Notes: a model not told the origin generated them from the sequence alone. A DNA stretch of 62,972 nt, filler included, from Basidiobolus ranarum (GCA_040143965.1; 39 parts of 39 records of this genome joined end to end with filler, not necessarily neighbours in it); one strand, 5' to 3'. Shown: positions 4,774 to 62,972, counted from the whole stretch's first letter. A program made the numbers and translations.

Positions 4774-4873
4774 NNNNNNNNNNNNNNNNNNNNNNNNNNN
4801 NNNNNNNNNNNNNNNNNTTAATTAATTAANNNNNNNNNNNNNNNNNNNNNNNNNNNNNNNNNNNNNNNNNNNN

Positions 4874-6397
4874 ATTAAAATTAAAATGCTGCTGCAAGAA
4901 AAAGGACTTTGGGACACTGTTGTAGGAGAAGAAAACAATGCAAAACTATCTGAAACCAAAGTTTCACTCCAGATTAAAAAAGAACAAAGTGCCTTTAACA
5001 TAATTTGTCTTAATGTCAAAGACAAATTGCTAATTCAATGTTCAAGAGCTAAAACTGCCAAGAAGGTACGGAAAGCCTTGGAAGACACCTTCCAAACAAG
5101 TTCTGCTGCCAACAAGATGTTTCCAAGAAGACAATTCTTTAACTTAAAGATGAAGTGGGGAGAAGACATTAATTCACAAATTAATAGAGTCACTATGTTA
5201 GTGGATGAAATGGAATGCATTAGAGTACCTACCACTGATCAAGATATCTTAGTTACAGTCCTGAATAGCCTGCCACACAAGTTTCAGACCCTAGTAATGG
5301 CTCTAGAATCAAGAACTGAAAATTTGACCTTAAATTATATATTTGGCAGACTTCTGGATGATGATTTATGCAAATCAGAATCAAACCAAAGGTATGAAGA
5401 AAATGCTTTAATAGGCTCTGGGAAACCTTCCTATAAAGGTCAAAAGCACTTTAAGAAGAAAAGTAACACATTCTGTGATTTCTGTAAAAGAACTGGCCTT
5501 TTAAGTGAGGATTGTTTAAAAGAATTGCAAAAGAAGAAAAACATACTGAATCTGGAAATGTGGTTGCAATAGAAGATCACTTGTTAATATCTGCTCTATC
5601 TATGACTACCAACAAGGATTCTCAGACATAGTATATTGATTCTGGAGCTTCTCAACATTTCACAAATGAAAAACATTGGTTTGTGAAATATGAAGAAATC
5701 CCAATTAGATATATTTTCATGGGAGATGACCACACTTTGGATGCTATTGGAATGGGAACAATTCAGGTCAATTTAACTGGAGCTTCTGAAGGGTAAGAAT
5801 ATACTTTTCAGTATGTACTGCATGTTCCAGATATTGCCAAGAATTTAATATCTGTATGCAAGGCCATCTCAGAAGGGCTAAAATTCAACATTGATAAGTC
5901 AGGATGCACCATCACTACTCAAAATGGGAATTATTTAGCTTTGGGAGAAAAGGATCAAAACTTACACAAACTTACATAAAATCCAAGAGATTTATGTGCA
6001 AATATAAGTTATTCCAATCAAGACACTATTCAATTATGGTATAAGAGATTTGGCCATATTGGATTTGCTTATTTGAGCAAAATGATCAAAAATCACCTAA
6101 TTTCTGGAATTCAAATTAACCCCTCAACCAAAAAGGAAATTTGTGAGAGTTGTATATATGGAAAACAAGCCAGGCAACTGTGCAAGAGCTCTGGTTTAAT
6201 CAAATCTGTCAAAAAATTGGATCTAATTTGTTCAGATTTATGTGGACCTATGAAAAATTTATCTTTAGGCAGAAAAAGATATTTAATCACATTTATTGAT
6301 GATTATACAAGATACACTTGGGTCTACTTTATGGAAAGAAAAGAACAAGCTCGCTCTATCTTTAGAGATTTTAAAACACTTGTGGAGACTGAAACTG
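4874..6397 (+). mobile_element. Copia family A gag-protease-integrase remnant
   Basis: gag ORF 4886-5572 with degenerate CxxC knuckle; YIDSGASQH; CESCIYGK; SDLCGPM...FIDDYTRYTWVY. Confidence 0.95.
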
Positions 6398-9949: not shown

Positions 9950-11205
9950 CTTTTTATCAACTTTTCTCTTGGACACAACAGGTATCTCTGCCAATCTCTC
10001 CACTGCCTTTCATCCCCAATCTGATGGCCAAACAGAAAGAGTCAATCAAGTTTTGGAACAATATTTGTGATGCACTATCAACTATAATCAGGATAATTGG
10101 ACACAACTCTTGCCTCTTGCTGAATTTGCTTACAACAACTCTTATCATACCTCAACAAAACAAACTCCTTTCTTTGCAAATTATGGATTCCATCCTCATT
10201 TCACAATTCACCCACCATCCAATCTACCTTGCCCTGCTGCCTCAGACCATGCCACTTTCCTTAAGGACATCCATAAACAATTAATATCTGAGTTGGAGCA
10301 TGCTCAATCCCAATACAAGAACTTTGCTGATAAGAAAAGAAAGCCAAGCCCAGATCTCAAGCCAGGAGATTATGTTTGGCTACTCTGGAAAAATATCAAA
10401 ACCACTAGACCTTGTGATAAACTTGATCATAAAAGACTAGGGCCTTTTAAGATTATTAAGCAAATCAATTCAGTAGCCTTCCACCTTGAACTCCCAGCCC
10501 ATTTCAAAGTCCACAATGTATTCCATGTGTCTCTCTTAGAGCCACATGCCAGAAACACCTTCCAGGGCCAATCCATTGACCCACCCCCAGCAATCCAAGT
10601 GAAAGAACATGCTGAATATGAAGTTAGCAAAATTCTAGATTCCAGAATTTATCAATGTAAATTGCAATATTTAGTGGACTGGAAGGGATACTTAACAAAT
10701 GATCAATGATAGAAGCCAGCAACAAATCTTTCCAATTCTAAGGAACTTTGCCAGGAGTTTCATGAAGCCTACCCAGAAAAGCCTGGCCCTATGATGTCTG
10801 GAAGCCATCACTAAAGAAGGGGATACCATCATGATTCTGATCTTGGCATACTGATTCACTGCAAATAAAACTCTTCTATTATTAGATTGTGACATCATAT
10901 CTACTGTGCCATCCCTTCTTGGCAATCTTGTGTTAGTTTATCCAGGTTGCCTTATATGGAAGTCATGTACTTTGGAACTTCCATGAAACCTAACCAATCA
11001 TGTCAACCCACACATAGTGTATTTCCACCAAGACCTTCCATGGAAGGTCACCTGATCATCCTTATAGCATCCCTCTTTGTATTGGTCCTTGTAGTCTCCA
11101 ACACCCAACACTTGAACCTGCCACAGTATATTCCCTATTCAGTATATTATGTTTCACCCTGCAATATCTATATAAGCCCTATGTATTCCTTGATGAGACC
11201 TCACT
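9950..11205 (+). mobile_element. Ty3/gypsy chromovirus integrase C-terminus, chromodomain, PPT and 3' LTR
   Basis: [31 protein letters not shown]...FHVSLLEP (GPY/F module); EYEVSKILDSR...QYLVDWKGY chromodomain; AGAAGGGGA PPT ~10816. Confidence 0.95.
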
Positions 11206-16230: not shown

Positions 16231-17751
16231 CCAATTCCTCTAATTCTCCAAACCACTTCCAACAGGCTCCCAAATACTTTAACATGTTCAAGAGCTAAAA
16301 CTGCCAAGAAAGTACAGAAAGCCTTGGAAGACACTTACCAAACATGTTCTGCTGCCAACAAGAAGTTTCTAAGAAGACAATTCTTCAACTTAAAGCTGAA
16401 GCCAGGAGAGGACATTAAATCACTAGTTAATAGAGGCACTAATTTAGTGGATGAAATGGAATGCATTGGAGTACCTACCACTGATCAAGATATCATAGTT
16501 ACAGTCCTAAATAGCCTGCCACATATGTTTTAGAGCCTAGTAATAGCTCTAGAATCAAGAACTGAATATTTGACCTTAAATTATGTATATGGCAGACTTC
16601 TGGATGAAGATTTACATAAATCAGGGCTCAACCAAAAGAATGAGGAAAATGCTTTAATAGGCTATGGGAAACCTTCCTATAAAGGTCAAAAGCACTTTAA
16701 GAACAAAAGTAACACATTCTGTGATACTGTAAAAGAACTGGCCATTTAAGGAAAGATTGAATTAAAAGAATTGCAAAACAAGAAATACATAGTGAATCTG
16801 GAAATGTGATTACAACAGAAGATCACTGTTCATATCTGCTCTATCTATGACTACAAGCAAGGATTCTCAGACATGGTACATTGATTCTGGAGCTTCCCTA
16901 CATTTCACAAATGAAAAACATTGGTTTGTGGAATATGAAGAAATCCCAATTAGAAAGGTTTACATGGGAGATGACAACACATTGGATGCTATTGGAATGG
17001 GAACAATTCCAGTCAATATAAATGGAGCTTCTGAGGAGAAAGTATATACTTTGAAGGATGTACTACATGTTCCAGATATTGCCAAGAATTTAATATCTGT
17101 ATGTAAGGCCATCTCAGAAGGGCCAAAATTCAATACTGATAAATTAGGATGCACTATCACTGATCAAAATGGGAATTATTTAGCTTTAGGAGAAAAGGAA
17201 CAGAACTTATACAAACTTACATACAATCCAAGAGGTTTATGTGTAGATATAAGTTTTTCAAATCAAGAAACTATTCAATTATGACATAAGAAATTTGGCC
17301 ATATTGGATTTGCCTATTTGAGCAAAATGATCAAAAATTGCCTAATTTCTGGAATTCAAATTAACCCCCCACCCAAAATGGAAATTTGTGAGGGTTGTAT
17401 ATAGGGAAAACAAGCCAGGCAACCATTCAAGAGCTCCGGTTTAATCAAATCTGTCAAAAAATTGGATCTAATTCATTCAGATTTGTGTGGACCTATGCAA
17501 AATTTATCTCTAAGTGGAGAAAGAAATTTAATCACATTTATCAATGATTATATAAGATACACTTGGGTCTACTTTATGGAAAGAATAGAAGAAGCTCTCT
17601 CTATCTTTAGAGATTTTAAAACACTTTTGGAGACTGAAACTGGAACTAAACTCAAGAAAATAAATACTGATAATGGTGGAGAATATACTTCAACACTATT
17701 TAAGCACTTTTGCAAAGTTCAAAGAATTAAGCAAGAAGTTACTGCCCCCTA
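16231..17751 (+). mobile_element. Copia family A LTR end (16231-16284) fused directly to internal gag, then protease and integrase
   Basis: ...TACTTTAACA joined to TGTTCAAGAGCT (mid-gag, cf. 5039); WYIDSGAS; LIHSDLCGPM; TDNGGEY. Confidence 0.93.
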
Positions 17752-27565: not shown

Positions 27566-29082
27566 AGTACCAATGGTGGTTTATCAGAAGTTGAAGAAGA
27601 AGACAATGGTTTTGTTATGGACTCTTTGTTATTGGCAAACATTAGTCCATCATAACACTTACAGTAAAGGAAGTAACTTTGATTATTGAGGAGTGGAGAG
27701 TTCAATCCAATCATAGCAACTGGGTGTTTATTGGTTTTCTTACACTTTTACCACAGTTGATTTGCAACTGTTGCTTGCCACAGACCTAGTACAAGTGGAA
27801 ACACTTGTCAATTGTATGACTTATAATCCTTCAGTAATTAAACTGCCTTCATATCCAAATGGTTGTTTGGCTTTCACCGGTGATCTGAAAAACCTCAAGT
27901 CTTGTACTGTTTGCACACAATTGACAATCACTGTATCAGGTAAATATTGCACATATTTGGCTTACATATTGTTGATTTCCCATCTTAAAGTTTTGATGAA
28001 ATAACCTCAATATAGATCATTGATCCAATACCAAAGTACTCACCATAAAGCTGATGGATTACCAATATACTTGATGGTTATGACTAACAGAATCTGAAAA
28101 GTCAAGGTTTCTTTTTAGAATATGTATGATCATGCAATTGCTTTGGCTCTGGGTGGATTCTCACTTTACAAATATACCATTGGAAAGGCTTGCTGGCCAA
28201 GCATATTTATCAACTTAAATATTCCGCCTTCTGAATGGTATAAGAGTCCCATTATTTTGATACTATCTAAGTTATCTGGACCTAAATCACCGGTGCTTAT
28301 AGATAGCTTCTTGAAGCCTTTGATTGTGAAATTTGAACAGTTATCTAATGGGGCTCAGATGGGTGAATATTTTATTAAAGCTAATATCCATGTATGTATT
28401 GGTGACACTCCTGCCATCAGTAAACTTGGAGGTGTTTGTGGGCACAATGCACTATGTTGCTGTAGATTTTGTCAAATCAATGGAGTTAACTCTGACAGGC
28501 ATACGCATTACTACTATCCAATACAACACTAAACTTCATGATTTTACCATCAAGAGCCCGGTCAGATTTCAACATGATCACTTATATCAATTCACCAAAT
28601 AGTCAGTCTAACATCAAACTTGGTATTAGCTTTAAGCCTAAGATTATATTACTAAAGGGGATCAGCTGGACCCAGAGCTTCCCATTAAGCACTATGTGCT
28701 TACTATTCAACAACATTCCATTGCTACTAACTCAGCTATATAGAGCAAAATTCAATATGAATGAGCCATTCAAGATATGATCAAAGTATGAATCAATTGG
28801 GAAAATTCTTGAAAACGTCAAGATACCATCATATTTTACCAGGACTCCCATCAATATCCACTCATCTTGGTGTTTATTCAAATGCAAAGACTGGAAGTAT
28901 TGGATTTATATATATTCCAGTGGATTTTGAAAACATTTCTGCCTGATAAGTATTGGCAATATTGGGAGTTGTTTCTCAATATTGCTTATATATTCTTCTG
29001 GCATCAACTCACATTTGCAGATCTCAGGCTGATACAGTGATTGTGCAAAGATTTTGTAATTGGATATGAAAAACTGTATTAC
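27566..29082 (+). mobile_element. CACTA/EnSpm transposase pseudogene (Transposase_21-like core)
   Basis: PNGCLAFTG...CTVC; ALALGGFS...CWP...INLNIPPSEWYK; GPKSP...DSFLKPL; IGDTPAISKLGG..GHNA..CCRFC; DWKYW. Confidence 0.92.
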
Positions 29083-29182: not shown

Positions 29183-30699
29183 TTACAAAGGCAGAGTCAA
29201 TAAAACAGGAGGAAGCACCTGAATCAAGAAGTGCAGTTGTTTTTATTGACTTGGAATTTGGTAGCAGGAGTGTAATGGGCAGCTTTAATGATTTATATGA
29301 CTGCAGAGATTGCGATGTATGGTGAAGCAATATTTTTGAAGATGGTTTGCCCAACTGCATGCCCATTGTTGCAGCTGGGTGTCAAAGTTTTCCAACGGTT
29401 GGGAAAAGTCCTCTTGTACCAGCACATTGTTGATCTTAAATCCAGGATTCTTCTTTGGAGAGGTTGTTGCTACATGTCCAGGAGCTTGACAATAGAGGCA
29501 TAGATTCTCTTGTTGGTGCCAATATTTCTGCTCTGGGCTAAGCTTTCTGAAGCAAGTTCCATCAATTCGCTTTGGATCATCAGCTTGAGCTGTATTTTGG
29601 GTTTGATGGAAGGTGGGTCTGAAAGTAGATGATGAATGAGAGAAGAAAGGAACCATGTTTCTTTGTTGTTGTCTTTCAAACAACCAGTTGTCACATTTAA
29701 CTGCCTGGTGGATAGCATCAGTCAAGGTCACTGGATCAGCCATAGTGAGTAAAATATCCTTAATGTTTTCTTGGAGTCCATATTCGAATTGGTAGATCAG
29801 GGCAGATTCTCCCCAATTGAGATCACCGGCAAGAAGGTGGAATTCTGCAGCATAAGTTGATGCAGGTTTCAACCCTTGTTTAAGTGCACGGAGCTTGGTG
29901 GCTGAAGTTATTTCTTTATCTGCATCTCCAAATGTGGCCTCCAGTTCAGCAAGAAAGGTAAGGAAGTTTGAAAGAAGTGGAGATTGACTTTCCATCAAAG
30001 GAGCAAACCAAGATAGAGCTGTACCTGATAATAGTGTTCCCACTAAGCCTACTTTTGCTTGGTGTGAGGGGTAGCAATGAGGATGTAACTGGATGATGAG
30101 CTTAACTTGGTTAATAAAAGCACAATAGTTTTGGTGAGTGCCATCAAACTTGTTTGGTAAGGAGATTTTGGGTTCAGGAGTTAGAATTGCAGTATAGTTG
30201 GGTGGAGCTGGATTCTGTACTTGAGCAATAGAAATACAAAGTTCTTGATTTTCTTGCTGAAGCTGAGTAAGAGCTTGCTTGATATCTTCCATTGTGGGGG
30301 CTGGTGTAGACATAATACTTACTATTTTGGGAGGGGGAAGTTTTTTAAAAACCACAAGTTTCTCTAGGAATGATAATCACAATGCAATGTCCAACTTTCT
30401 TTTGAAGAAATGATTGGGGCCTTGACAAAAGAATATGCTGGTATCAATTTCCTTTGATCTTGATCAAGTGCTAAAGCTTCTTTGATCAAAAATAACTGTA
30501 AACTCAACCAGTAGTGTTTTGACAAGGATGCACTTAGAGCAATTATCCAAAGGTGGAAGGTTCCTTTGCCTTAGCAGGGAAGCTTGGGAAAGATGGGGAA
30601 TAAGAGGGAAGCTGACCTTGGGGGGTTTCAAGGTTGGAGAACAGGGATGGAGAGAAGTCTACAGGCAAGTATAAGTAGTCTGATCAAACTGTCACAATA
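29183..30699 (-). mobile_element. Tf1/sushi-type gypsy LTR end, PBS (30677-30687), leader, gag and protease (-1 frame)
   Basis: PEPKISLPNKFDG...A.SWF...LRALKQG...YAAEF (PEG10/sushi-like gag); LCLYC..PGH knuckle; ALLDSGASSCFID. Confidence 0.95.
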
Positions 30700-32241: not shown

Positions 32242-32314
32242 TGGTCTGGCCAGGGTTTGAACCTGGGGCCTCCTTCACTCTAGCAAGGTGCTCTAACCAC
32301 TGAGCTACCAGTCC
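32242..32314 (-). pseudogene. tRNA-like sequence (73 nt, apparent anticodon AGA, mismatched stems) located 26 bp from an LTR-like CAACA end
   Basis: GGACTGG TA GCTC-AGTGGTTA-GAGC A CCTTG-CTAGAGT-GAAGG AGGCC CCAGG-TTCAAAC-CCTGG CCAGACC A; D and T arms and A/B boxes intact, one mismatch each in the acceptor and anticodon stems. Confidence 0.85.
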
Positions 32315-32416: not shown

Positions 32417-33933
32417 CTCTCCCTCAACTAAATAGTCATATAAACTAATCCTAATAAAGGTCTAAATTTCTCAAATTTCTGTCTAGCTAATGGTTTGGTT
32501 AATATATCAGCAATCATGTCTTCTGTAGAACAATAAGTTAAGTCAATAAACTTATTCTCTATAGTCTCTCTAATGAAGTGATGCTTAATATCTATGTGTT
32601 TGCTTCTATGATGAAACACAGGATTTTTAGCTAATTTGATACAACTTCGATTATCTTGAAATATTGTAGTTGGTGAATTTTGAGAATAACCCAAATCTGC
32701 TAAGAGCTTTCTTAACCATATTGCTTCTTTTGTTGCTTCACAGGCAGCCATGTTGTAAGCTTCAGTTGTTGAAAGTGCTATGGTAGGTTGTTTCTTTGAA
32801 TTCCAAGAAATAGCTCCATTACAGCAAAGAAATAGGTATCCTGTTGTAGATCTCCTGTCTGCAGTATCTCTTCCCCAATTTGCATCTGAATATCTCATCA
32901 GATCAAAGTTTGATCCAGAATATATGTATTTTAAGCATAGATCCACAGTACCTTTCAAATATCTGAAAATCCACTTAACTGCTATGATTTGATCAGATCC
33001 ATAATTTTGAAGATATTGGCACATAACTCCCACAGAATATGCAATATCTGGCCATGTTCCAACCATGATATACATCAAACTACCAACCATAGATTGATAA
33101 GGAAATTTCTGGCTTTCATTTGAATCCAAGAATGTCTGATTTGAGCCATTTTTGGTCAAGTTAAGATTTGTCTCCATTGGGGTAGATACTGGATTACATT
33201 CTTCCATTTTAAACTTCTTTAGTATATCTAGGATATACTTAGACTGGTTTAAAGTTATTGTTTTGGTAGTTCTATCTATCTTAATTTGGATTCCAAGATA
33301 GTACATCAGTTCACCAAGATCAGTCATTTTGAATTTGGCAGATAAGCTGGATTTGGTGTTCTCCAAAGTCTTCAAGTCATTGGTTGCTATAATAAGATCA
33401 TCTACATATAAGGCTAATAAAACTGGGTTTGTCTTATCTGGCCTGAAGTAGATACTATAGTCAGCATTACTCTTTTGGAATTTGAGTGTTTCCAAAAAAG
33501 CATCTATCTTGCTATTCCAAGCTCTTGGAGATTGTTTTAAGCCATAGAGTGTTTTCCAGAGTCTGCAAACTTTTTTAGGGTTTTCTGGGTCCACAAATCC
33601 ATCTGGCTGGTCTATATAGATCTCCTCAGCAAGCTCATCACCCAACAAAGCTGTTTTAACATCCATTTGATGTATAACAAACTGATATTTAGCTGAAATT
33701 GCTAAAATCAATCTAATTGAATTAAACTTTGCTACAGGAGCAAAAGTTTCTGTGTAATCTATTCCTGGTGTTTGGGAATAGCCTTTGGCTACTAGTCTAG
33801 CCTTGTACCTTTCTATATTGCCATCAGAGTTGTATTTAACTTTAAACACCCATTGGCAGCCAATTGATTTTCTATCATCAGGTAAGTGGGTTAAGATCCA
33901 AGTTTGATTATCAATCAAAGCCTGGTACTCATC
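32417..33933 (-). mobile_element. Copia family A RT-RNase H, uninterrupted 496-aa frame, followed by PPT
   Basis: YKARLVAKGYSQ, QMDVKTA, LYGLKQSPRAW, LYVDDL, YSDANW, ADILTKPL; GAGGGAGAG after the stop. Confidence 0.97.
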
Positions 33934-34033
33934 NNNNNNNNNNNNNNNNNNNNNNNNNNNNNNNNNNNNNNNNNNNNTTAATTAATTAANNNNNNNNNNN
34001 NNNNNNNNNNNNNNNNNNNNNNNNNNNNNNNNN

Positions 34034-34864: not shown

Positions 34865-35549
34865 TGATTGCTCCAATACCAAAGTACTCAGCAAAATACT
34901 GATGGTATTACCAATATACTTAATGGATATCACTACCAAAATCTGATAAGCCAAGGCTTGTTTCAGAATTCATATGATCATACATTTGCTTTGGCTCTGG
35001 ATGATATCTTACTAAACTAATATAGGATTGGAAAGGCTTGCTGGCCAATAATTTCAATTAGCTTGAATCTTCCTCCATCTGAATAGTATATTGGTCATAA
35101 TATTTTGATACTATCCATCATATCTATCATTGCTTTGATCTCAGCATACTCATCTACTGCAGACAGAACTCTTCTACTACTAGATTATGACATCATATCT
35201 GCTGTGCCATCCTTTCATGTCAATCTTGTGTTAGTTCTTCCAGGGTACCTGATATGGAAGTCATGTGCTTTGGAACATTCCATAAAACCTAACCAATCAT
35301 TTCATTTGACATGTAGTTTATTTCTGCCAAGACCTTCCATGGAAGGTCACCTGATCATCCTTACATCATCTCTCTTTGTATTGGTCCTTGTAGTTCCCAA
35401 CACCCTGATGCTTGAACTTGCCACTGTATGCTCCCTATTCAGTATATTATGTTCCACCCTGCAACAACTATGTAAGCACCATGTATTCCTTGATCAGACC
35501 TCAGTCTGATCAATGCCAGTTATCAATAAAGATTCTTGCCAAAGTATCT
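34865..35549 (+). mobile_element. CACTA transposase fragment (to ~35125) interrupted by a gypsy LTR (~35126-35549)
   Basis: Matches 28020-28275, then switches to an LTR matching 44763-45190. Confidence 0.85.
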
Positions 35550-36382
35550 NNNNNNNNNNNNNNNNNNNNNNNNNNNNNNNNNNNNNNNNNNNNTTAATTA
35601 ATTAANNNNNNNNNNNNNNNNNNNNNNNNNNNNNNNNNNNNNNNNNNNNTAAAACAGATTATTGCCAAGGTTGGGTTTGAACTGGTTGACTTTTAGTTGG
35701 AACATGGATGGTTATACTTGTGTAGAAGTGCTATAGGAGTCATTGTCAGCAATTTCAATGGCTAGAAGAATTGGTGGCTTACACATATTGAATGAAATAT
35801 TAACATTAATAACTATGTGATGGAGTGAGCATGGAACTTGTAAATATGTTGTGGAAGGACCCATGATCATGTGTGTGATGTATGGGGCCTTTAAGACAAG
35901 CTTGAAAAGTTGTTATATCTGTGAACATCTAAGTAAATTGCAGTTGAGAATAGGTTATGTGCTAGTAAATATAGCATAATAATCTTCTTTACATGGGTTA
36001 AATATTAGCAATAGATATAATACACACATAGAGTATAGTTCAGATATACTCCTATCCTATCACAATCTATTAGGAGATTACTATCCAGATTATTACTTTA
36101 CTTAGATTAGTATATAAGCCATATTATGTTCGTAACACTTGGTACTTTTCATCCTCTCCAAAGTATAACAGAGGAAATTGATTACGTTTATGCTAATAAT
36201 TGTAGCATAATCAACATAAATAAGTAAATATATATGCGTATTGCATTACGAATTGCCACTCTGTGTTGGTACTTAATGTATGCAAGGAACACTTGACAAG
36301 AGATAAGCTTTTGCCGCTCACAGTTTTAAAATAACTATAGTCAAAGTTCAGGTAGTCGCAGTATTGTGGTAGTAAACATACG

Positions 36383-42110: not shown

Positions 42111-43185
42111 ATTTGGTAAGGAGATTTTGGGTTCAGGAGTTGGATTTGCAGTATAGTTGGGTGGAGCTGGATTCTGTACTTGAGCAATAGAAGTACAAAG
42201 TTCTTGATTTTCTTGCTGAAGTTGAGTAAGAGCTTGTGCAATATCTTCCATTGTGGGGGCTGGTGTAGACATAATACCTACTATGTTGTGAGGGGGAAGT
42301 TTTAAAACTACAGGTTTCACTTGGATTGATAATCACACTGCAATGTCCAACTTTCTGTTGTAGAAATGATTGGCACCTTGATGAAAGAATATGCTGGTAT
42401 CAATGTCCTTTGATCTTGATCAAGTACTAAAGCTTCTTTGATCAGAAACAACTGTAAACACAACCAGTAGTGTCTTGACAAGGATGCACTTAGAGCAATT
42501 ACCCATAGGTGGAAGGCACCTTTGCCTTAGCAGGGTAGCTTGGGAAAGATGGGGAATAAGAGGGAAGCCAACCTTGGGGGGCTTCAAGGTTGGAGAACAG
42601 GGATGGAGAGAAGTCTACAGGCAAGTATAAGTGGTCTGATCAAACTGTCACAGTAAGGAACTGGACAAGGACTGAAAACAATGACAAGAGGCTAGAAGGC
42701 AGGAGAGTACTTGGGTGTAGACCACAAGACAAGACAAGACAAGACAAGACTGGATAAGGTAGATACTTTGGCACGAATCTTTATTGATTACTGGCATTGA
42801 TCAGACTGAGGTCTTATCAAGGAATACATGGGGCTTATATAGATATTGTAAGGTGAAACATAATATACTGAATAGGGAATATACTGTGGCAAGTTCAAGA
42901 GTTGGGGTGTTGGGGACTACAAGAACCAATACAAAGAGGGATGATGTAAGGATGATCAGGTGACCTTCCATGGAAGGTCTTGGCATAAATACACTATGTG
43001 TGAGATGACATGATTGGCTAGGTATCATGGAATGTTCCAAAAAACATGACTTCCATCAAAGGTAATCTGGATAAACTAACACAAGGTTGCCAAGAAGGGA
43101 TAGCACAGCAGATATGATGTCATATTCTAATAATAGAAGAGTTCTATATTCAGTGGATCAGCATGACAAGATCAGAATCATGACA
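42111..43185 (-). mobile_element. Gypsy complete 5' LTR (43185-42646, 540 bp), PBS (42634-42643), leader and gag start
   Basis: TGTCATG...TGTGACA termini; TATA, AATAAA; gag MSTPAPTMEDI as in 29285-30355. Confidence 0.95.
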
Positions 43186-43421
43186 AAATATGGCTAAAAA
43201 TATGTCATTTGAAAGCCCTGAGTTCCCTTATCAATCTATGGTAGGTAGTTTGATCTATACTATGGCTGGAACCCAGCCAGATATCTCTTTTGCAGTGGGA
43301 GTAGTCAGCCAATATGTGCAAAACCCAGGATCTGAGCATTATGTTGCAGTCAAGTGGATTTTCAGATATTTGAAGGGGACAATTGATATGGGATTAGGAT
43401 ACACATATTCTTATGAGAATA
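43186..43421 (+). mobile_element. Copia RT/RH linker fragment trapped between gypsy and CACTA insertions
   Basis: PYQSMVGSLIY...TQPDISFAV...KWIFRYLKGT. Confidence 0.9.
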
Positions 43422-43624
43422 CCCTAACAGAAATTTGAGGATTGTTATCGTAGGAAAACCGTCACAATTTTAATCCATTTGGGATTGACCTTTTACTTAC
43501 CGTCATAAAATAGTCAAGTTAGATTTGATTTTAATCAATTTTTTCAGTTTCAGGAGTGAAATTTCAAGATCTCACAAAATAGTTGCAAATGATTGGCTAA
43601 AATCTCAGAGAACTATGGATCAAC
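43422..43624 (+). mobile_element. CACTA left end
   Basis: CCCTAACAGAAATTTGAGG; retains CpG-containing ACCGTCA subterminal motifs. Confidence 0.9.
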
Positions 43625-44449: not shown

Positions 44450-45238
44450 TAATGTATTCCATGTGTCTCTCATAGAGCCACATGCCAGAAACACCTTCCA
44501 GAGCCAATCCATTGACCCACCCTAAGCAATCCAAGTTGAACAGAACCCTGAATATGTAGTTAGCAAAATTCCAGATTCTTGAATTTATCAACATAAATTG
44601 AAATATTTAGTGGAGTGGAAGGGATACCCAAAAATTGCTCAATGATGAGAGCTAGCAAGAAAGCATTCCAATTCTAAGGAACTTTGCCAGGAGTTTTATG
44701 AAGTGCGTCCAGAAAAACCTGGCCCTATGATGTCTGGAAGTCATCACCAAAGGAGGGGATACTGTCATGATTCTGATCTTGGCATACTCAGCCACTGCAA
44801 GTAGAGCTCTTCTAATATTAGATAATAACATCATACTTATTGTGCCATCCTTTCTTGGCAATCTTGTGTTAGTTCATCCAGGTTACCTTACATAGAAATC
44901 ATGTTCTTTGCAACGTTCCATGAAACTCAACCAATCATTTCATCCAACACATAGTGTATTTCTGCCCAGACCTTCCATAGAAAGTCACCTGATCATCCTT
45001 ACATCATCCCTCCTTGTATTGAGCCTTGTAGTCCCCAAAACCCTGACACTTGAACTTGCCACAGTATATTCCCTATTCAGTATATTTTGTTTCACCATGC
45101 AATATCTATATAAGCCCCATGTATTCTTTGATTAGACCTCAGTCTGATCAATGCCAGTTATCAATAAAGATTCTTGCCAAAGTATCTTCCTTGCCCAGTC
45201 TTGTCTTGCCTTGTCTTGTCTTGTGGTCTACACCCAAG
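44450..45238 (+). mobile_element. Gypsy chromodomain region, PPT and 3' LTR (from 44763)
   Basis: NVFHVSL.EP, YLVEWKGYP; AAAGGAGGGGA-TAC-TGTCATG. Confidence 0.93.
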
Positions 45239-50866: not shown

Positions 50867-50925
50867 TGAAGAGAAGGCCCATTAATCATCATATAGAATT
50901 TACATTTCTTCCTTAACTTCAATCA

Positions 50926-51690
50926 ATGGTGGCCATCAAGCTCATTACCTCCATCTCACTCTTGGCTGCTACTTCAATGGCTTGGGTTTGGCCTTTGCCT
51001 GCGAAGATGGATGTTGGCCATAACATCATTCGCTTGAGCAGAAATGAACTCGACATCTCCATCAAAACTCCTGCTGGTGCTGATATCCTTGAGAGAGCCG
51101 TTCACCGCTACAAGAAGTTGATCTTCACCAAGGGTGAGTTCAGTGCACTCCTTAGCCCGGTTGAGAAGACCGTGTTCCCCATTCCTACCACCTCCGTCCC
51201 TGTTCATCCACTTGCACCTAAGGGTAAGTACCCTACATTGACTGGACTCAGTATTCAGGTCAGTGGCCACAACACCAAACTCAATCTTGACACCGATGAG
51301 TCGTACACTATTGATGTTCCTGCACGTGGTGGCAAGGCTACCATTAAGGCCAAGAGTGTGTACGGAGCTCTCCGTGGACTCGAATCATTCTCCCAATTGG
51401 TCAAGTGGACTGCTGAGGCCAATCAGTACCGCATTCCATTCGCTCCAGTCTCTATCTCTGACAAGCCAGTCTTCGTCCATCGTGGTGTGATGATTGATTC
51501 ATCCCGCAACTTCCTCAAGATCGAAGACATCAAGCGTACTCTCGATGCCATGTCATACAACAAGCTTAATGTTCTCCATTGGCACATCATTGATCAACAC
51601 AGTTTCCCTCTCAAGACCAAGACCTATCCTCAACTCGCTGAAAAGGGAGCTTACAGCAAGGAATGGGTCTACACTGAGAAAGATGTTCGT
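50926..51690 (+). CDS. Secreted GH20 beta-N-acetylhexosaminidase, 5' part
   Basis: Signal peptide then VWPLP; DESY; YGALRGLESFSQL; D.P.F.HRGVMIDSSRNF; LDAMSYNKLNVLHWHIID..SFP. Confidence 0.96.
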
Positions 51691-51790
51691 NNNNNNNNNN
51701 NNNNNNNNNNNNNNNNNNNNNNNNNNNNNNNNNNTTAATTAATTAANNNNNNNNNNNNNNNNNNNNNNNNNNNNNNNNNNNNNNNNNNNN

Positions 51791-53544: not shown

Positions 53545-54508
53545 GTCTTGCATCTTGGGTCTTTGTGAAAGGTATTCAAGCCTCAAGAAATGTCTAAGGA
53601 ATGATAGATCACAATGCAATGTCCAGCTTTCTGTTGAATAATGTGCTGGTGCCTGGCAAAAGAATATACTGGCTTCAATGTCCTTTGAGAATTATTGGAT
53701 AAAAAAGCATATCAAATGAAAAACAACTGTGAACTCTGCCAGCAGGGTTTTGAACAAGGATACACTAGTAGTGCTTTATCCAAGGATAGACAAAGTTTGT
53801 TGCTTGTGCAAACAAAGCTAGGGAAAAATATAAAGTATCAGTAATATAGCACCTACCCATCAGTACTTCCTTTGAGCCAGTCAAGGTCTTTCTATTAACA
53901 CAGTAGCCTCTAACTGTCTCTAGTAGTCTCTCTTGAGCTTCCTCTTCAATGGTCTTGTAAGCAGTGATGAAAATTCAGGGTGATCAAAAGTAGTAATTGT
54001 TAATTGATAAGCAGGATGATTTTTGTTGAAAAGATATGGCATCAAATTATACTTTTCTGAAGGTAGAAATAATGAATAATGAGAATTTCCAGAAAGTTGC
54101 AGAGAATTCTATTGGTGGGGCTCTGGGGATATGATGTCATCATTAAACATAAGATAAGTAATCCATGGATTGTTCTGGAAAATTGTGTAATAATTCAGAA
54201 AGTCATGGAATATTCCAGCAAAATCAAGTTTTGATTAGTCAAAATTCAATCAATCAGCAAATATTGCAAGAATTTTGTGGAATGTTCCAGAAGATTGTAG
54301 AAATTTTCAGAAAATAAGAGGGCTAATATGGGTTAGTACTGATAAATCTCAAATGATAGGGGATAGTACCAATAGTGTGATATGATTGGTTAGAAGACAT
54401 GGGTAAGTCAAATATGGATAATAAATTGAAATTGTGGGATAGGAATGATATGAGCTAGGAATGGAAATAAGTCAATCTGCCAGTGGGTAGCAATGATACC
54501 CCACTACA
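53545..54508 (-). mobile_element. Second gypsy-like family: complete LTR (54508-53956, 553 bp) and leader
   Basis: TGTAGTGGGG...GCTTACA termini; second LTR copy at 56033-56526; leader related to the first gypsy family. Confidence 0.75.
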
Positions 54509-54570
54509 ATGATCAATCCAAAACGGATTAAAATTGCAATGGTTTTCTTAAAATAACAATTCTCAAATTT

Positions 54571-54781
54571 ATGTTTCACCCTGCAGTATCTATATAAGCC
54601 CCATATATTCCTTGATCAGACCTCAGTCTGATCAACCCCAGTTTTCAATAAAGATTCTTGCCAAAGTATCTTCCCTGTCCAGTCTTGTCATGTCTTGTCT
54701 TGTGGTCTACACCCAAGAACTCTCCTGCCTTCCAGCCTCTTGTTGTTTTTTCCAATCCTTGTCCAGTTCCTTATTGTGACA
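54571..54781 (+). mobile_element. Gypsy family 1 LTR 3' half
   Basis: TATATAAG 54591, hairpin 54612-54635, AATAAA 54647, ends TGTGACA. Confidence 0.9.
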
Positions 54782-55014
54782 AGTGTAGTTGGAAGTCACA
54801 TATATATAACAACTGGTACTAGGCCTGATATTGCCATAGCTGCAAGCATAGTAAGCAATACATGGAAAATCCTGCAATCAAACATTGAATAGCTGCTAAT
54901 TAGGGAATACACTANNNNNNNNNNNNNNNNNNNNNNNNNNNNNNNNNNNNNNNNNNNNTTAATTAATTAANNNNNNNNNNNNNNNNNNNNNNNNNNNNNN
55001 NNNNNNNNNNNNNN

Positions 55015-56032
55015 CTTCAAAATCCCTAGTCTCTTTGATATATTCTCCTGAATATTTTTATAGAGTTCTTCATACCCAAGGTTTAGCTCATACCCAACAC
55101 AAGTTTGTATCAATATCTCCATCAACGCCCACTATTATATTAGCATTGCTGAATCAACATTCTTCCAGCTATCTGGCAGATATCCTGCAATATTGTGCCA
55201 CTCTGTATTAAGTTCTTCCCAGATATCTGCACCATCAACACCAGACTGAATGTCAAGTTGAATGTTCTTCTGAAAGCCACTTTCTGCATATTTGCACTGC
55301 GTTTTTCCCTTCATACTTTTGAAAATACTCCTCAAGCACTTTGACTATTTTTGTACATCCTTGCAATGTGACACTACTGAGGGTGCTTTGTGGTGTTTGT
55401 GCGGCTTTTTGCTTGCCTTTAACTTTGGGTTTAATTTCAACACTTTGAAAAGTACCAGTTGAGGTTGGAGAGCCATGAGTTTCATTTGCTGGTGTTTTAG
55501 CTTGATGAGAGGTGCCAGATGTTGGATAAACTTCCAAATTTTGCACTCTTCCAACCGGTGTACCTGGTTCCATGGTGAAATTAAGCTTTTTTGCCAGTAT
55601 ATCTGACTCTGGAATTGCAGATCTTCATAATGGTGTGAAGAACTTGGTAAAGAAGCCCTGCTATTATTGTCACAAATTCTTGTGCTATGAAAGCCGGAGA
55701 CTTCATAGAAAAAAAAATCACAAGCACGGTCACTGTACAATGCCACCAGCTGCACAAAGCCTGGTGTATAACAACAGTAATAAGTGCACTAAATTTACTT
55801 TAGTTTTGCCCATTGAGTCCACTGACTGTAGTTTGCCTCAAAGGTTTGGTAACACTGCCAAAAGTCAAGATACCATGGAGTTACCACAGTTACATGACCA
55901 GAACGATGTAGGTCAAAATGCAACTTTGGTCAAACCAGTAAGTCAAGACAACTTTGAGGACTTGCTGCTAGATGTTGACCTTGGTTATTCCAGTACTGAT
56001 GGTAGTATATCAGAAGTTGAAGAAGAAGACAA
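55015..56032. mobile_element. CACTA internal region: antisense accessory ORF (55573 leftwards) and transposase N-terminus (55572 rightwards)
   Basis: Bridges the left-end contig (27069-27465) to the transposase contig (27566 onward); CYYCHKF...H motif. Confidence 0.88.
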
Positions 56033-56526
56033 TGTAGTGGGGTAGCATTGCTACCCACTGGCAGGTTGACTTATTTCCACTCCAAGCTCATATCGTTACT
56101 ATTGCACAACTTCTATTTTATTATCCTTATTTGACTTACCCATATTTTCTAGCCAATCATATCACACTACTAGTATTATCCCCTATTACCTCAGATTTAT
56201 CAGTATTAACCCACTTTAGCCCTATTATTTTCTGGAAATTCTACAATCTTCCAGAACATTCCGCAAGATTCTTAGAATATTTGATGATTGATTAAGTGTT
56301 GACCAATCAAAACTTGATTTTGCCAGAACATTCCATGACTTTCTGGATTATCCTACAACCTTCTGGAACATTCCATGGATTACTAATCTCATGATTTATG
56401 ATGATATCATAACCTCAGATCCCCACCAATAGAATTCTCTGGAACTTTCCGGAAATTCTCATTAGTAATCATATCTACCTTCAGAAAAGTATAAATAGGA
56501 GCCATATCTTTTCAAATAAAAATCAT
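56033..56526 (+). mobile_element. Second gypsy-like family LTR (3'-truncated) inserted in CACTA transposase
   Basis: Starts TGTAGTGGGG and interrupts EEEDN; homologous to 54508-54015. Confidence 0.85.
56248..56497 (+). promoter_or_regulatory. Clustered heat-shock-element consensus sites, CCAAT boxes and TATA within an LTR
   Basis: TTCcaGAAcaTTC 56249-56261, TTCtgGAAcaTTC 56361-56373, GAActTTCcgGAA 56442-56454; TATAAATA 56490. Confidence 0.65.
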
Positions 56527-61461: not shown

Positions 61462-62972
61462 ATTGACTACAACAAGCCAATCCTTCGAAATCTCTCTGTC
61501 GCTCAACTCTATGAGCATGCCCTCAACTATGAGCCAGGAACTGTCATGTCCTCTACTGGTGCCTTGATCACTAGATCCGGACAAAAGACCGGAAGAAGCC
61601 CCAAGGACAAGCGTATTGTTCAGGAGAAGTCCACCGATGGCGAGATCTGGTGGGGACCTGTGAACATCCCAATGGAAGAAAAGGTATTCCGCGTCAATCA
61701 TGAACGTGCTGTCGACTACTTGAACACCCGCGAGAGACTCTATGTCTTTGATGGATTTGCCGGATGGGATCCAAAATACCGCATCAAGGTACGAGTAGTG
61801 TGTGCTCGTGCTTATCACGCTCTCTTCATGAGGAATATGCTCATCCGTCCAAGTGAAGAGGAGTTGGAGAACTTTGGAGAGCCAGATTTCACCATCTTCA
61901 ATGCTGGTCAGTTCCCAGCTAACAGATACACCTCTGGAATGACCAGTGCCACCAGTGTGGCCATCAGCTTTGAGAGACGCCAACTCGTCATTCTCGGTAC
62001 TCAGTATGCTGGAGAGATGAAGAAGGGAATCTTCACGGTTATGCACTACTTGATGCCCAAGACTGGTGTTCTCTCACTTCACTCAAGTGCCAATGAAGGA
62101 CCTGATGGGGATGTTTCCCTATTCTTTGGACTTTCCGGCACTGGTAAAACCACTCTCTCAGCAGATCCTCGTCGTAGTCTGATTGGTGATGACGAGCACT
62201 GCTGGAGTGACGATGGAATCTTCAACATTGAAGGTGGTTGTTACGCCAAGTGCATCGACCTTTCAGCCGATAAGGAGCCAGAGATCTTCGGGGCCATTCG
62301 CTTCGGATCAGTCCTCGAGAATGTGGTCCTTGATGATGAGACCAGAGTGGTGGACTACACTGACTCATCTATCACCGAGAACACTCGCTGTGCCTATCCA
62401 ATCGAGTACATTCCTAATGCTAAGATCCCTTGTGTCGGAGGTCATCCAAAGAACATCCTCCTCCTGACATGTGATGCTTTCGGAGTACTTCCACCTGTGG
62501 CCAAGTTGACACCCGAACAGGCAATGTACCACTTCATCTCCGGCTATACCGCAAAGATTGCAGGTACTGAGGAAGGAGTCACCGAACCACAAGCCACCTT
62601 CTCTTCATGCTTCGGTCAACCATTCTTAGCCTGGCATCCAGTCAAATATGCCTCCATGCTCGCTGAGAAGATGAAGGAGCACAACACCAACGTGTGGCTG
62701 ATCAACACCGGTTGGAATGGAGGAGCCTATGGGGTTGGTGAGCGTATCTCCATCAAGTACTCACGAGCCATCATCAATGCCATCCACTCGGGTGAGTTAG
62801 AGGGTGTAGAGTATGAGACTTACCCTGTCTTCAACTTCATGATTCCCAAGACATGCAGTGAAGTACCTGAGATCATTCTCAACCCTCTCAGCTCATGGCA
62901 AGGAACAAAGGCTGAGTTTGAAAGTACCCTTCAGAAGTTGGGAGGCTTGTTCCGAGAGAACTTCAAGACTTA
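61462..62972 (+). CDS. PCK1: Phosphoenolpyruvate carboxykinase (ATP), partial at both ends (absent from the ORF track because there is no stop)
   Basis: [81 protein letters not shown]. Confidence 0.98.

Follow-up and report, generated by a model that had tools for sequence, protein, structure and literature searches.

Tf1 and Tf2 of S. pombe are described as self-primed elements, in which reverse transcription starts from a primer made of the first ~11 nt of the transcript (PMC10085805, PMC4600332, PMC5341516, PMC6317226). In the same sources, a "pretzel" structure of the 5′ UTR is described as three duplexes, all inside the 5′ UTR, and self-priming is also proposed for Tj1, Tosmo, Tcry1, sushi, and Tcn1-clade elements (PMC10085805, PMC4600332, PMC5341516, PMC6317226). 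Tf2 mobility is reported to be set by start-site choice: a downstream start removes the primer, and chromatin decides (Persson et al. 2016, PMC5341516). Ty3 is described with a bipartite PBS, composed of a 5′ PBS and a U3 segment at the 3′ end, and a tRNA primer that bridges the genome ends (PMC5371799).

Self-priming poses a problem that tRNA priming does not have: any primer copy that meets a PBS could be cleaved. The primer is part of R, so each genomic RNA has two copies of its sequence, as does each read-through transcript. Here, a hairpin is described at the U3/R border of an LTR family from Basidiobolus ranarum (GCA_040143965.1). Its 5′ arm repeats the PBS, and its 3′ arm is the putative self-primer. 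Related elements keep the fold through matching mutations, and it is probably a real control element.

Hairpin copies and their repeat family

The window, meaning the whole 62,972-nt stretch of DNA analyzed, consists of 39 unrelated contigs of ~1.5 kb, arranged in falling length order and joined by linkers of the form N44-TTAATTAATTAA-N44 (e.g., 35550–35649 and 54915–55014). The linkers are artificial, so contig neighborhood in the window carries no meaning. Many contigs stop inside repeats. A complete element is absent from the window, and the copies listed in Table 1 are separate fragments of one repeat family. By fragment alignment, all hairpin copies sit in LTRs of one putatively self-priming Ty3/gypsy chromovirus.

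Table 1. Positions of LTR, hairpin, PBS, and coding features of the repeat family in the window
Feature	Position	Strand	Details
Integrase C-terminal part: SH3_Tf2-1 and putative chromodomain start	10071–10709	+	Upstream of purine tract and 3′ LTR copy F
3′ LTR copy F: 5′ arm (C6>G) and loop only	11190–11203	+	LTR sequence breaks off after CCTCA, the predicted +1
Contig E gag ORF, 3′ of PBS	29285–30376	−	Pfam matches
Contig E PBS, 11 nt, TTGATCAGACT	30677–30687	−	Contig begins 12 nt ahead of PBS
Perfect hairpin, LTR copy A	35490–35513	+	Contig ends inside R at 35549
Copy B gag ATG	42272	−	After PBS and leader
Copy B PBS TTGATCAGAC	42634–42643	−	2 nt (GT) past LTR end TGACA
Complete 5′ LTR, copy B, 540 bp, TGTCA...TGACA	42646–43185	−	Fragment alignment
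Copy B hairpin, one mismatch (A.G)	42820–42797	−	24-mer search
Hairpin, 3′ LTR copy C	45128–45151	+	5′ arm C6>T, a U.G wobble
LTR copy D	54569–54781	+	5′-truncated at ~54569, ends ...TGTGACA at 54781; alignment
TATA box TATATAAG, copy D	54591–54598	+	First T 34 nt upstream of predicted +1 A
Hairpin 5′ arm TTGATCAGAC, copy D	54612–54621	+	Last part of U3; identical to first 10 nt of PBS
Loop CTCA, copy D	54622–54625	+	A54625 is the predicted transcription start (pyrimidine-A / C-A initiator)
3′ arm GTCTGATCAA, putative self-primer at start of R, copy D	54626–54635	+	With A54625, an 11-nt primer
AATAAA poly(A) signal inside R, copy D	54647–54652	+	12 nt downstream of hairpin

The 24-mer TTGATCAGAC-CTCA-GTCTGATCAA has four matches in the window with up to three mismatches allowed, against 0.00 expected in 100 dinucleotide shuffles. 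These matches are copies of one LTR, so their recurrence does not amount to four independent events. The search agrees with the sequence-only reading of this DNA, which had described a 10-bp stem with a 4-nt loop as perfect at 54612–54635 and 35490–35513 and as having one mismatch at 42797–42820 and 45128–45151. The four copies on that list stand, and a fifth, the 5′ arm and loop at 11190–11203, had been missed. Perfect hairpins with a stem of at least 8 bp and a loop of 3–8 nt occur at only 10 places in the 63-kb window, and two of these are LTR copies. No other family with the three-part pattern of U3 arm, primer, and PBS was found by this hairpin scan of the window.

Both single mismatches lie at position 6 of the 5′ arm (C>A in copy B, C>T in copy C), and the 3′ arm is intact in four of four copies. 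In the five copies, this position (54617, 35495, 42815, 45133, and 11195) reads C, C, A, T, and G, and it is the only aligned column with four states. The mid-stem position is changed in three of the five window copies, and one of the changes alone is a wobble. Each arm contains the 6-nt palindrome TGATCA (54613–54618 and 54629–54634), and the primer and the PBS hence share it. Pairing of one primer with another, or of one PBS with another, would thus be possible, and a role in RNA dimer contacts is speculation.

The TATA motif is kept in all five window copies, except for TATGTAAG in copy A, and its first T lies 34–35 nt from the predicted start. This spacing (28–35 nt in relatives) and the C-A initiator suggest that the transcript begins with the primer. 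The start site at the loop A is predicted from TATA spacing and by analogy with related loci. Located downstream of the TATA box but upstream of the predicted start, the 5′ arm should be missing from the RNA 5′ end. From the position of AATAAA, R is estimated to be ~45–55 nt in length.

Copies C and F are 3′ LTRs, each behind a purine tract and an integrase end (SH3_Tf2-1 domain and putative chromodomain start). Upstream of the copy C LTR are a chromodomain remnant and the purine tract AAGGAGGGGA. The arm is thus present in a 5′ LTR (copy B) and in 3′ LTRs (copies C and F). Copy D is a solo or 3′ LTR fragment, as no PBS follows 54781. The candidate assignment of copy D to a subfamily with a different U3 was ruled out. 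Its upstream part is another repeat, also found at 56030–56521 (−), and copy D is therefore a 5′-truncated LTR. The two copies of this second repeat (54020–54511 and 56030–56521 (−)) are 85–88% alike and inverted, and both end ...CCCCACTACA; the repeat adjoins copy D. In copy F, the sequence beyond 11203 is unrelated up to the contig end (11190–11266) and is without a second copy in the window. An insertion, template switching, or chimeric assembly could each explain this break at the hairpin.

The Gag ORF matches DUF4939 (5.7e-12), Retrotrans_gag (1.1e-10), and Ty3_capsid (1.4e-8) in Pfam, all above cut-offs, and is a Ty3-type Gag. The integrase end matches SH3_Tf2-1 with an E-value of 3.9e-19, above cut-off. 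A Chromo match (E 4.7e-5, 23.7 bits) is below the 25.1-bit cut-off and covers the first 27 positions only, followed by a stop codon. The PBS is not of the tRNA type. It does not start with TGG and is an exact LTR complement over 10 nt in copy B and 11 nt in contig E, beginning 2 nt after TGACA. The same 10–11 nt form the U3 arm, and the same PBS layout is found in 33 of 70 related loci. The arm had been read as identical to the PBS, and TTGATCAGAC is indeed located 2 nt past the LTR end at 42643–42634 (−) and 30687–30678 (−). PBS type, Gag, and integrase matches likewise support the earlier assignment to a self-priming Ty3/gypsy chromovirus. In Gag type, integrase SH3 domain, PBS type, and layout, the sequence fits an element of the self-priming Tf1/sushi kind. 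The window has no RT that belongs to this family. Rfam 15 covariance models gave no match at E ≤ 1 on either strand of 42111–43624.

Other contigs contain unrelated features. An uninterrupted PEP carboxykinase (ATP)-like ORF at 61462–62970 (+) and a beta-hexosaminidase-like ORF with a signal-peptide-like start at 50917–51738 (+) are host-gene fragments; both were named by eye from their translations. This gene content, ORFs without interruption included, would point to a fungus-like eukaryotic host. Other mobile elements (2–1462, 4826–5572, 16796–17284, 32428–33981, and 28119–28532) comprise Ty1/copia gag and pol pieces and a tnp2-type (CACTA) transposase fragment, and include a long copia RT-RNase H ORF named by eye. 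A tRNA-Ser gene is located at 32242–32314.

Complementarity and covariation in related elements

The Gag protein has 47 relatives at 39–69% identity, of which 34 were aligned as the query for metagenome contigs. From these contigs, 80 gag loci (38–49% identity) were fetched, the best 80 of 220 confirmed relatives. Of these 80 comparator loci, all from a single Gag clade, 70 offer at least 150 nt of sequence ahead of gag. An exact primer–PBS pair of 8–12 nt, with the PBS directly after ...ACAG[ACT], is present in 33 of these 70. The 31 exact-pair loci that have 35 nt of U3 were used for statistics and, with the window copies, form 17 primer classes. The 39 loci outside the statistics are two exact pairs with too little U3, nine with the same layout and 1–2 primer–PBS mismatches, one with its landmark at a contig edge, one doubtful locus, and 26 without a recognizable landmark (13 of the 26 have at least 600 nt upstream). 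No Gag relatives were found in viral contigs. Genome contigs gave two eukaryotic matches (L081 and L082), both filed under bacterial genome assemblies and probably contamination of them. L081 carries the hairpin and PBS of the L026 class.

In the analyzed loci, TATAAA is located 28–35 nt ahead of the first PBS-complementary base, and this base is A in 26 of 32 (window copy B counted). The last three bases of the primer are CAA, and CACCAGT(T/C) comes next. This fixed TATA/primer architecture supports a primer that begins at the transcription start, as in Tf1. CACCAGT(T/C) stands directly after the primer's CAA in nearly all related classes, whatever the primer sequence; in the window it is found at 54636–54643 (CCCCAGTT) and 42796–42789 (−) (TGCCAGTA). 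It may mark an RNase H cleavage context or one of the pretzel duplexes.

Complementarity was scored per class as the duplex between the last 35 nt of U3 and a 12-nt primer window (17 classes, the window family with four copies). Own U3 against own primer gave a class mean of −8.76 kcal/mol, compared with −5.17 for cross-class pairs (sd 2.13, n = 272), and the own-class mean was reached in 0 of 20,000 label permutations. Duplexes of −12 or stronger were formed in 6 of 17 classes vs 1 of 272 cross pairs. The complementarity is confined to the 35 nt just upstream of the primer (class mean −8.5). In control regions, the values were −4.05 for the 35 nt downstream (Wilcoxon p 0.0019) and −4.4 for positions −70 to −36 (p 0.0010).

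The six strong stems differ in sequence: TGTTCACCTTGA/TCAAGGTGAACA, GTTCGCCTTGAT/ATCAAGGCGAAC, TTGATCTCC(C)TTG/CAAGGAGATCAA, GTCGAGGCTGAAG/CTTCAGTCTCGAC, TGGTCTG/CAGACCA (a class with a second short stem), and the window's own. In four more classes, a 5–8-bp stem adjoins the primer (TTGAACC/GGTTCAA and variants), and some arms cover merely 6–7 nt of the primer. Exact primer–PBS pairs without a convincing U3 arm are found in 7 of 17 classes (L002, L023, L027/L028, L032, L033, and L066; weak in L010/L063). Elements can thus do without the hairpin.

Three-way covariation of U3 arm, R start, and PBS, proposed in the sequence-only reading as the way to check it in relatives, is present in several families. 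The best-sampled clade has nine sequences. Its 12-bp helix is paired in 89.8% of cells, vs 25–45% when the 3′ partner is slid by 1–3 columns. Three pairs are changed on both sides, and the covariation score is 0.204, vs 0.078 for shuffled alignments (0 of 500). Pair 22–41 changes AU>GC>UA, together with the PBS. Pair 28–35 changes AU>GU>GC, and both of its bases are upstream of the start, in U3, and outside the PBS-like part. Being wholly in U3, this pair is unrelated to the PBS and matters only if the stem forms in cis on the plus strand. In the L026/L035/L081 class, the stem has 13 bp with a G.U, and four pairs are entirely in U3.

Pairwise identity is 1.00 in the TATA box, 0.34 in the upstream spacer, 0.85 in the 5′ arm, 0.57 in the loop, and 0.95 in the primer. 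Between sister loci in the Gag tree, a T/C difference in the primer is matched by A/G in the arm (L037/L042, support 100/99; L062/L065, support 100/98). The arm is ~5–20 nt from the primer, and the PBS is recopied from the primer in each cycle, so recombination could spread one compensated state. With such spread, independent compensatory events would be fewer than loci. Given the anatomy, the covariation, and the plus-strand signature (G.U intermediates and U3-only pairs), it is very likely that a cis hairpin under selection exists at the U3/R border. What the hairpin is for does not follow from the covariation, which proves only that it forms.

Predicted folds and possible functions

The 10-bp hairpin is present in the MFE and centroid folds of the copy D U3-R sequence (z = −3.6), and 0 of 200 shuffles fold as well. 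For copy B RNA starting at the predicted +1, GUCUGAUCAA pairs with the PBS in both MFE and centroid folds, and a stem-loop is predicted just upstream of the PBS. The whole copy B leader has a z-score of only −1.39; the primer–PBS duplex and the PBS-adjoining stem-loop are predicted in it, and the two flanking duplexes of the pretzel were not identified. Among RNAs begun at the predicted start, the primer is placed on the PBS in 31 of 32 loci (MFE folds). This result, and the location of the arm upstream of the predicted start, support the earlier proposal that the RNA 5′ end lacks the U3 arm and has its primer free for the PBS.

When 36 nt of U3 are added and the PBS is kept in cis, the MFE folds retain the primer–PBS pairing in 17 of 32 loci and switch the primer to the arm in 12 of 32, so a read-through block is predicted for a minority of loci only. 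In the copy B read-through-type RNA, in which the arm has the A.G mismatch, the primer stays on the PBS. No PBS is near the true 3′ end, and the local hairpin would therefore form there without a PBS competitor. The proposed locking of the primer in a U3-R hairpin is supported by the predicted folds in the 3′ context, and those of read-through-type RNAs speak in part against it.

We give an even chance to the reading that the hairpin masks the second primer copy in any RNA that holds the U3 end. Under masking, transcription from the 5′ LTR would start in the loop, and the genomic RNA would begin with the 3′ arm alone. The free 3′ arm would fold back onto the PBS just past U5 and would be cleaved and extended as in Tf1. 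RNAs with the U3 end, namely the 3′ U3-R stretch of every genomic RNA and transcripts reading into the LTR from upstream, would contain the PBS-like 5′ arm, placed a few bases ahead of the primer copy. The primer copy in such RNAs would be locked in a local hairpin, and the copy at the capped 5′ end alone would engage the PBS. Without masking, cleavage at the 3′ R would remove the acceptor for strand transfer, and read-through RNAs could yield primers with a 5′ extension. That the arm is often lost agrees with a device that helps but is not required.

In a wider form, which we propose tentatively and hold at somewhat under an even chance, the U3 arm, self-primer, and PBS make up a three-part switch in self-priming LTR retrotransposons. 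The switch would tell the capped 5′ R from the 3′ R and from LTR read-through RNA, so that correctly initiated genomic RNA alone starts reverse transcription. The 5′ helix (primer:PBS) and the 3′ helix (U3 arm:primer copy) are equal in sequence and could also swap partners, joining the genome ends for strand transfer.

If masking is correct, a 3′-specific masking hairpin would be a simple element-encoded answer to the hazard of self-priming and a new cis element for the Tf1-type replication scheme. A PBS-like arm between TATA box and primer would then be an annotation mark for the U3/R border and the start site. Should masking prove wrong, the LTR would still contain a conserved RNA structure, the covarying stem, where none was expected.

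A selected hairpin could have another job at the 3′ end only, such as 3′-end processing at AATAAA, protection of the RNA end, or keeping the R acceptor open from position 12 on. The primer would then be involved merely because a start-spanning stem must use the first R bases. Covariation and conservation suit any cis-hairpin function, the stems reach into U3-only pairs (also in the L026 class), and the poly(A) signal is in R at both RNA ends while the hairpin is at the 3′ end only. However, the 3′ arm stops inside the primer in every case, short of the conserved CACCAGT. The link to polyadenylation is a supposition, and a poly(A) site as near as ~25 nt to the cap should be weak in any case. 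We consider a separate 3′-end job unlikely. It is quite improbable that the U3 arm is a second, 3′-terminal PBS of the Ty3 bipartite kind, with the hairpin as its resting state. The free 5′ primer, or the primer on minus-strand strong-stop DNA, would pair with the arm, and the joined ends would help the first transfer. In the window, 10 nt of the arm match the PBS exactly, several classes have an arm complementary to the primer, and the relative Ty3 is described with a PBS split between 5′ UTR and U3 (PMC5371799). The stems, however, use bases −1 to −4, which the RNA 5′ end does not have, and several arms span just 6–7 nt of the primer. The covariation of a wholly-U3 pair and the 13-bp stem of L026/L035/L081, compared with an 11-nt primer, favor pairing in cis with the adjacent 3′ R copy.

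We also attach little probability to a hairpin that acts in DNA, where the arm would occupy the R start and stop fold-back of the 3′ PBS copy of plus-strand strong-stop DNA and dead-end priming. Judging from the Tf1 replication scheme, this fold-back hazard would be particular to self-primed elements. With DNA parameters, the copy B U3(end)-R-U5-PBS strand formed the local hairpin and not the fold-back, and G.U (G.T) intermediates occur on the plus strand. Plus-strand strong-stop DNA normally stays on the minus-strand template until transfer, however, and G.T pairs are poor in DNA yet tolerated in two classes. RNA and plus-strand DNA are not separated by these data. An arm without function, whether a scar left by snap-back reverse transcription at the 5′ end of the RNA or a chance palindrome passed on by descent, would agree with the absence of the hairpin in 7 of 17 classes and with the mid-stem changes in three of five window copies. 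The TATA-to-start distance, however, is 28–35 nt with or without the arm, so the arm arose by substitution in a fixed-length spacer, not by insertion. The symmetry centre is 3–8 nt upstream of the start and not on it. The snap-back scar was rejected on the constant spacing and this upstream centre. The arm is also better conserved than its flanks. A DNA-level promoter or initiator element would be a protein-binding motif that keeps its sequence and does not covary, whereas the stems take at least six different sequences, each matched to its own primer; a promoter motif was rejected because the arm covaries with the primer rather than keeping its sequence. We regard absence of function, or a promoter or initiator element, as very improbable.

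Comparison with described systems

No description of a U3 arm or U3/R hairpin in self-priming elements was found by full-text literature search or in the papers covered (PMC6317226, PMC4600332, PMC5341516, PMC2864245, PMC5006619, PMC10085805, PMC5371799), among which the primary Tf1 papers are not. The hairpin is probably previously undescribed, and an earlier description is conceivable.

The family resembles Tf1 and Tf2 in its predicted ~11-nt 5′ primer, the complementary PBS just past the 5′ LTR, the lack of a tRNA-type PBS, a putative integrase chromodomain (here a sub-cut-off match), and a predicted stem-loop just upstream of the PBS. It differs from Tf1 and Tf2, as these are described rather than by comparison with Tf1, Tf2, or Tj1 sequences, in having a third copy in U3 and the U3/R hairpin. 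As in the description of Ty3, a U3 sequence of a Ty3/gypsy element is complementary to the primer. Unlike in Ty3 as described, the primer here would be the RNA's own 5′ end, and the U3 segment adjoins a second primer copy with which local pairing is predicted.

In the HIV-1 leader, the primer activation signal is masked by pairing, and a poly(A) hairpin is present. Like the switches of that leader, the hairpin described here would hide or expose a reverse-transcription motif by local pairing, and R structures behave differently at the two ends. HIV-1 uses tRNA priming and has no PBS copy in U3, so the resemblance is one of logic only. Tf2 as described shares with this family a self-priming ability that depends on the position of the start relative to the primer. 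Unlike in Tf2, an upstream start or a 3′ context would here add the masking arm, and the discrimination would be built into the RNA.
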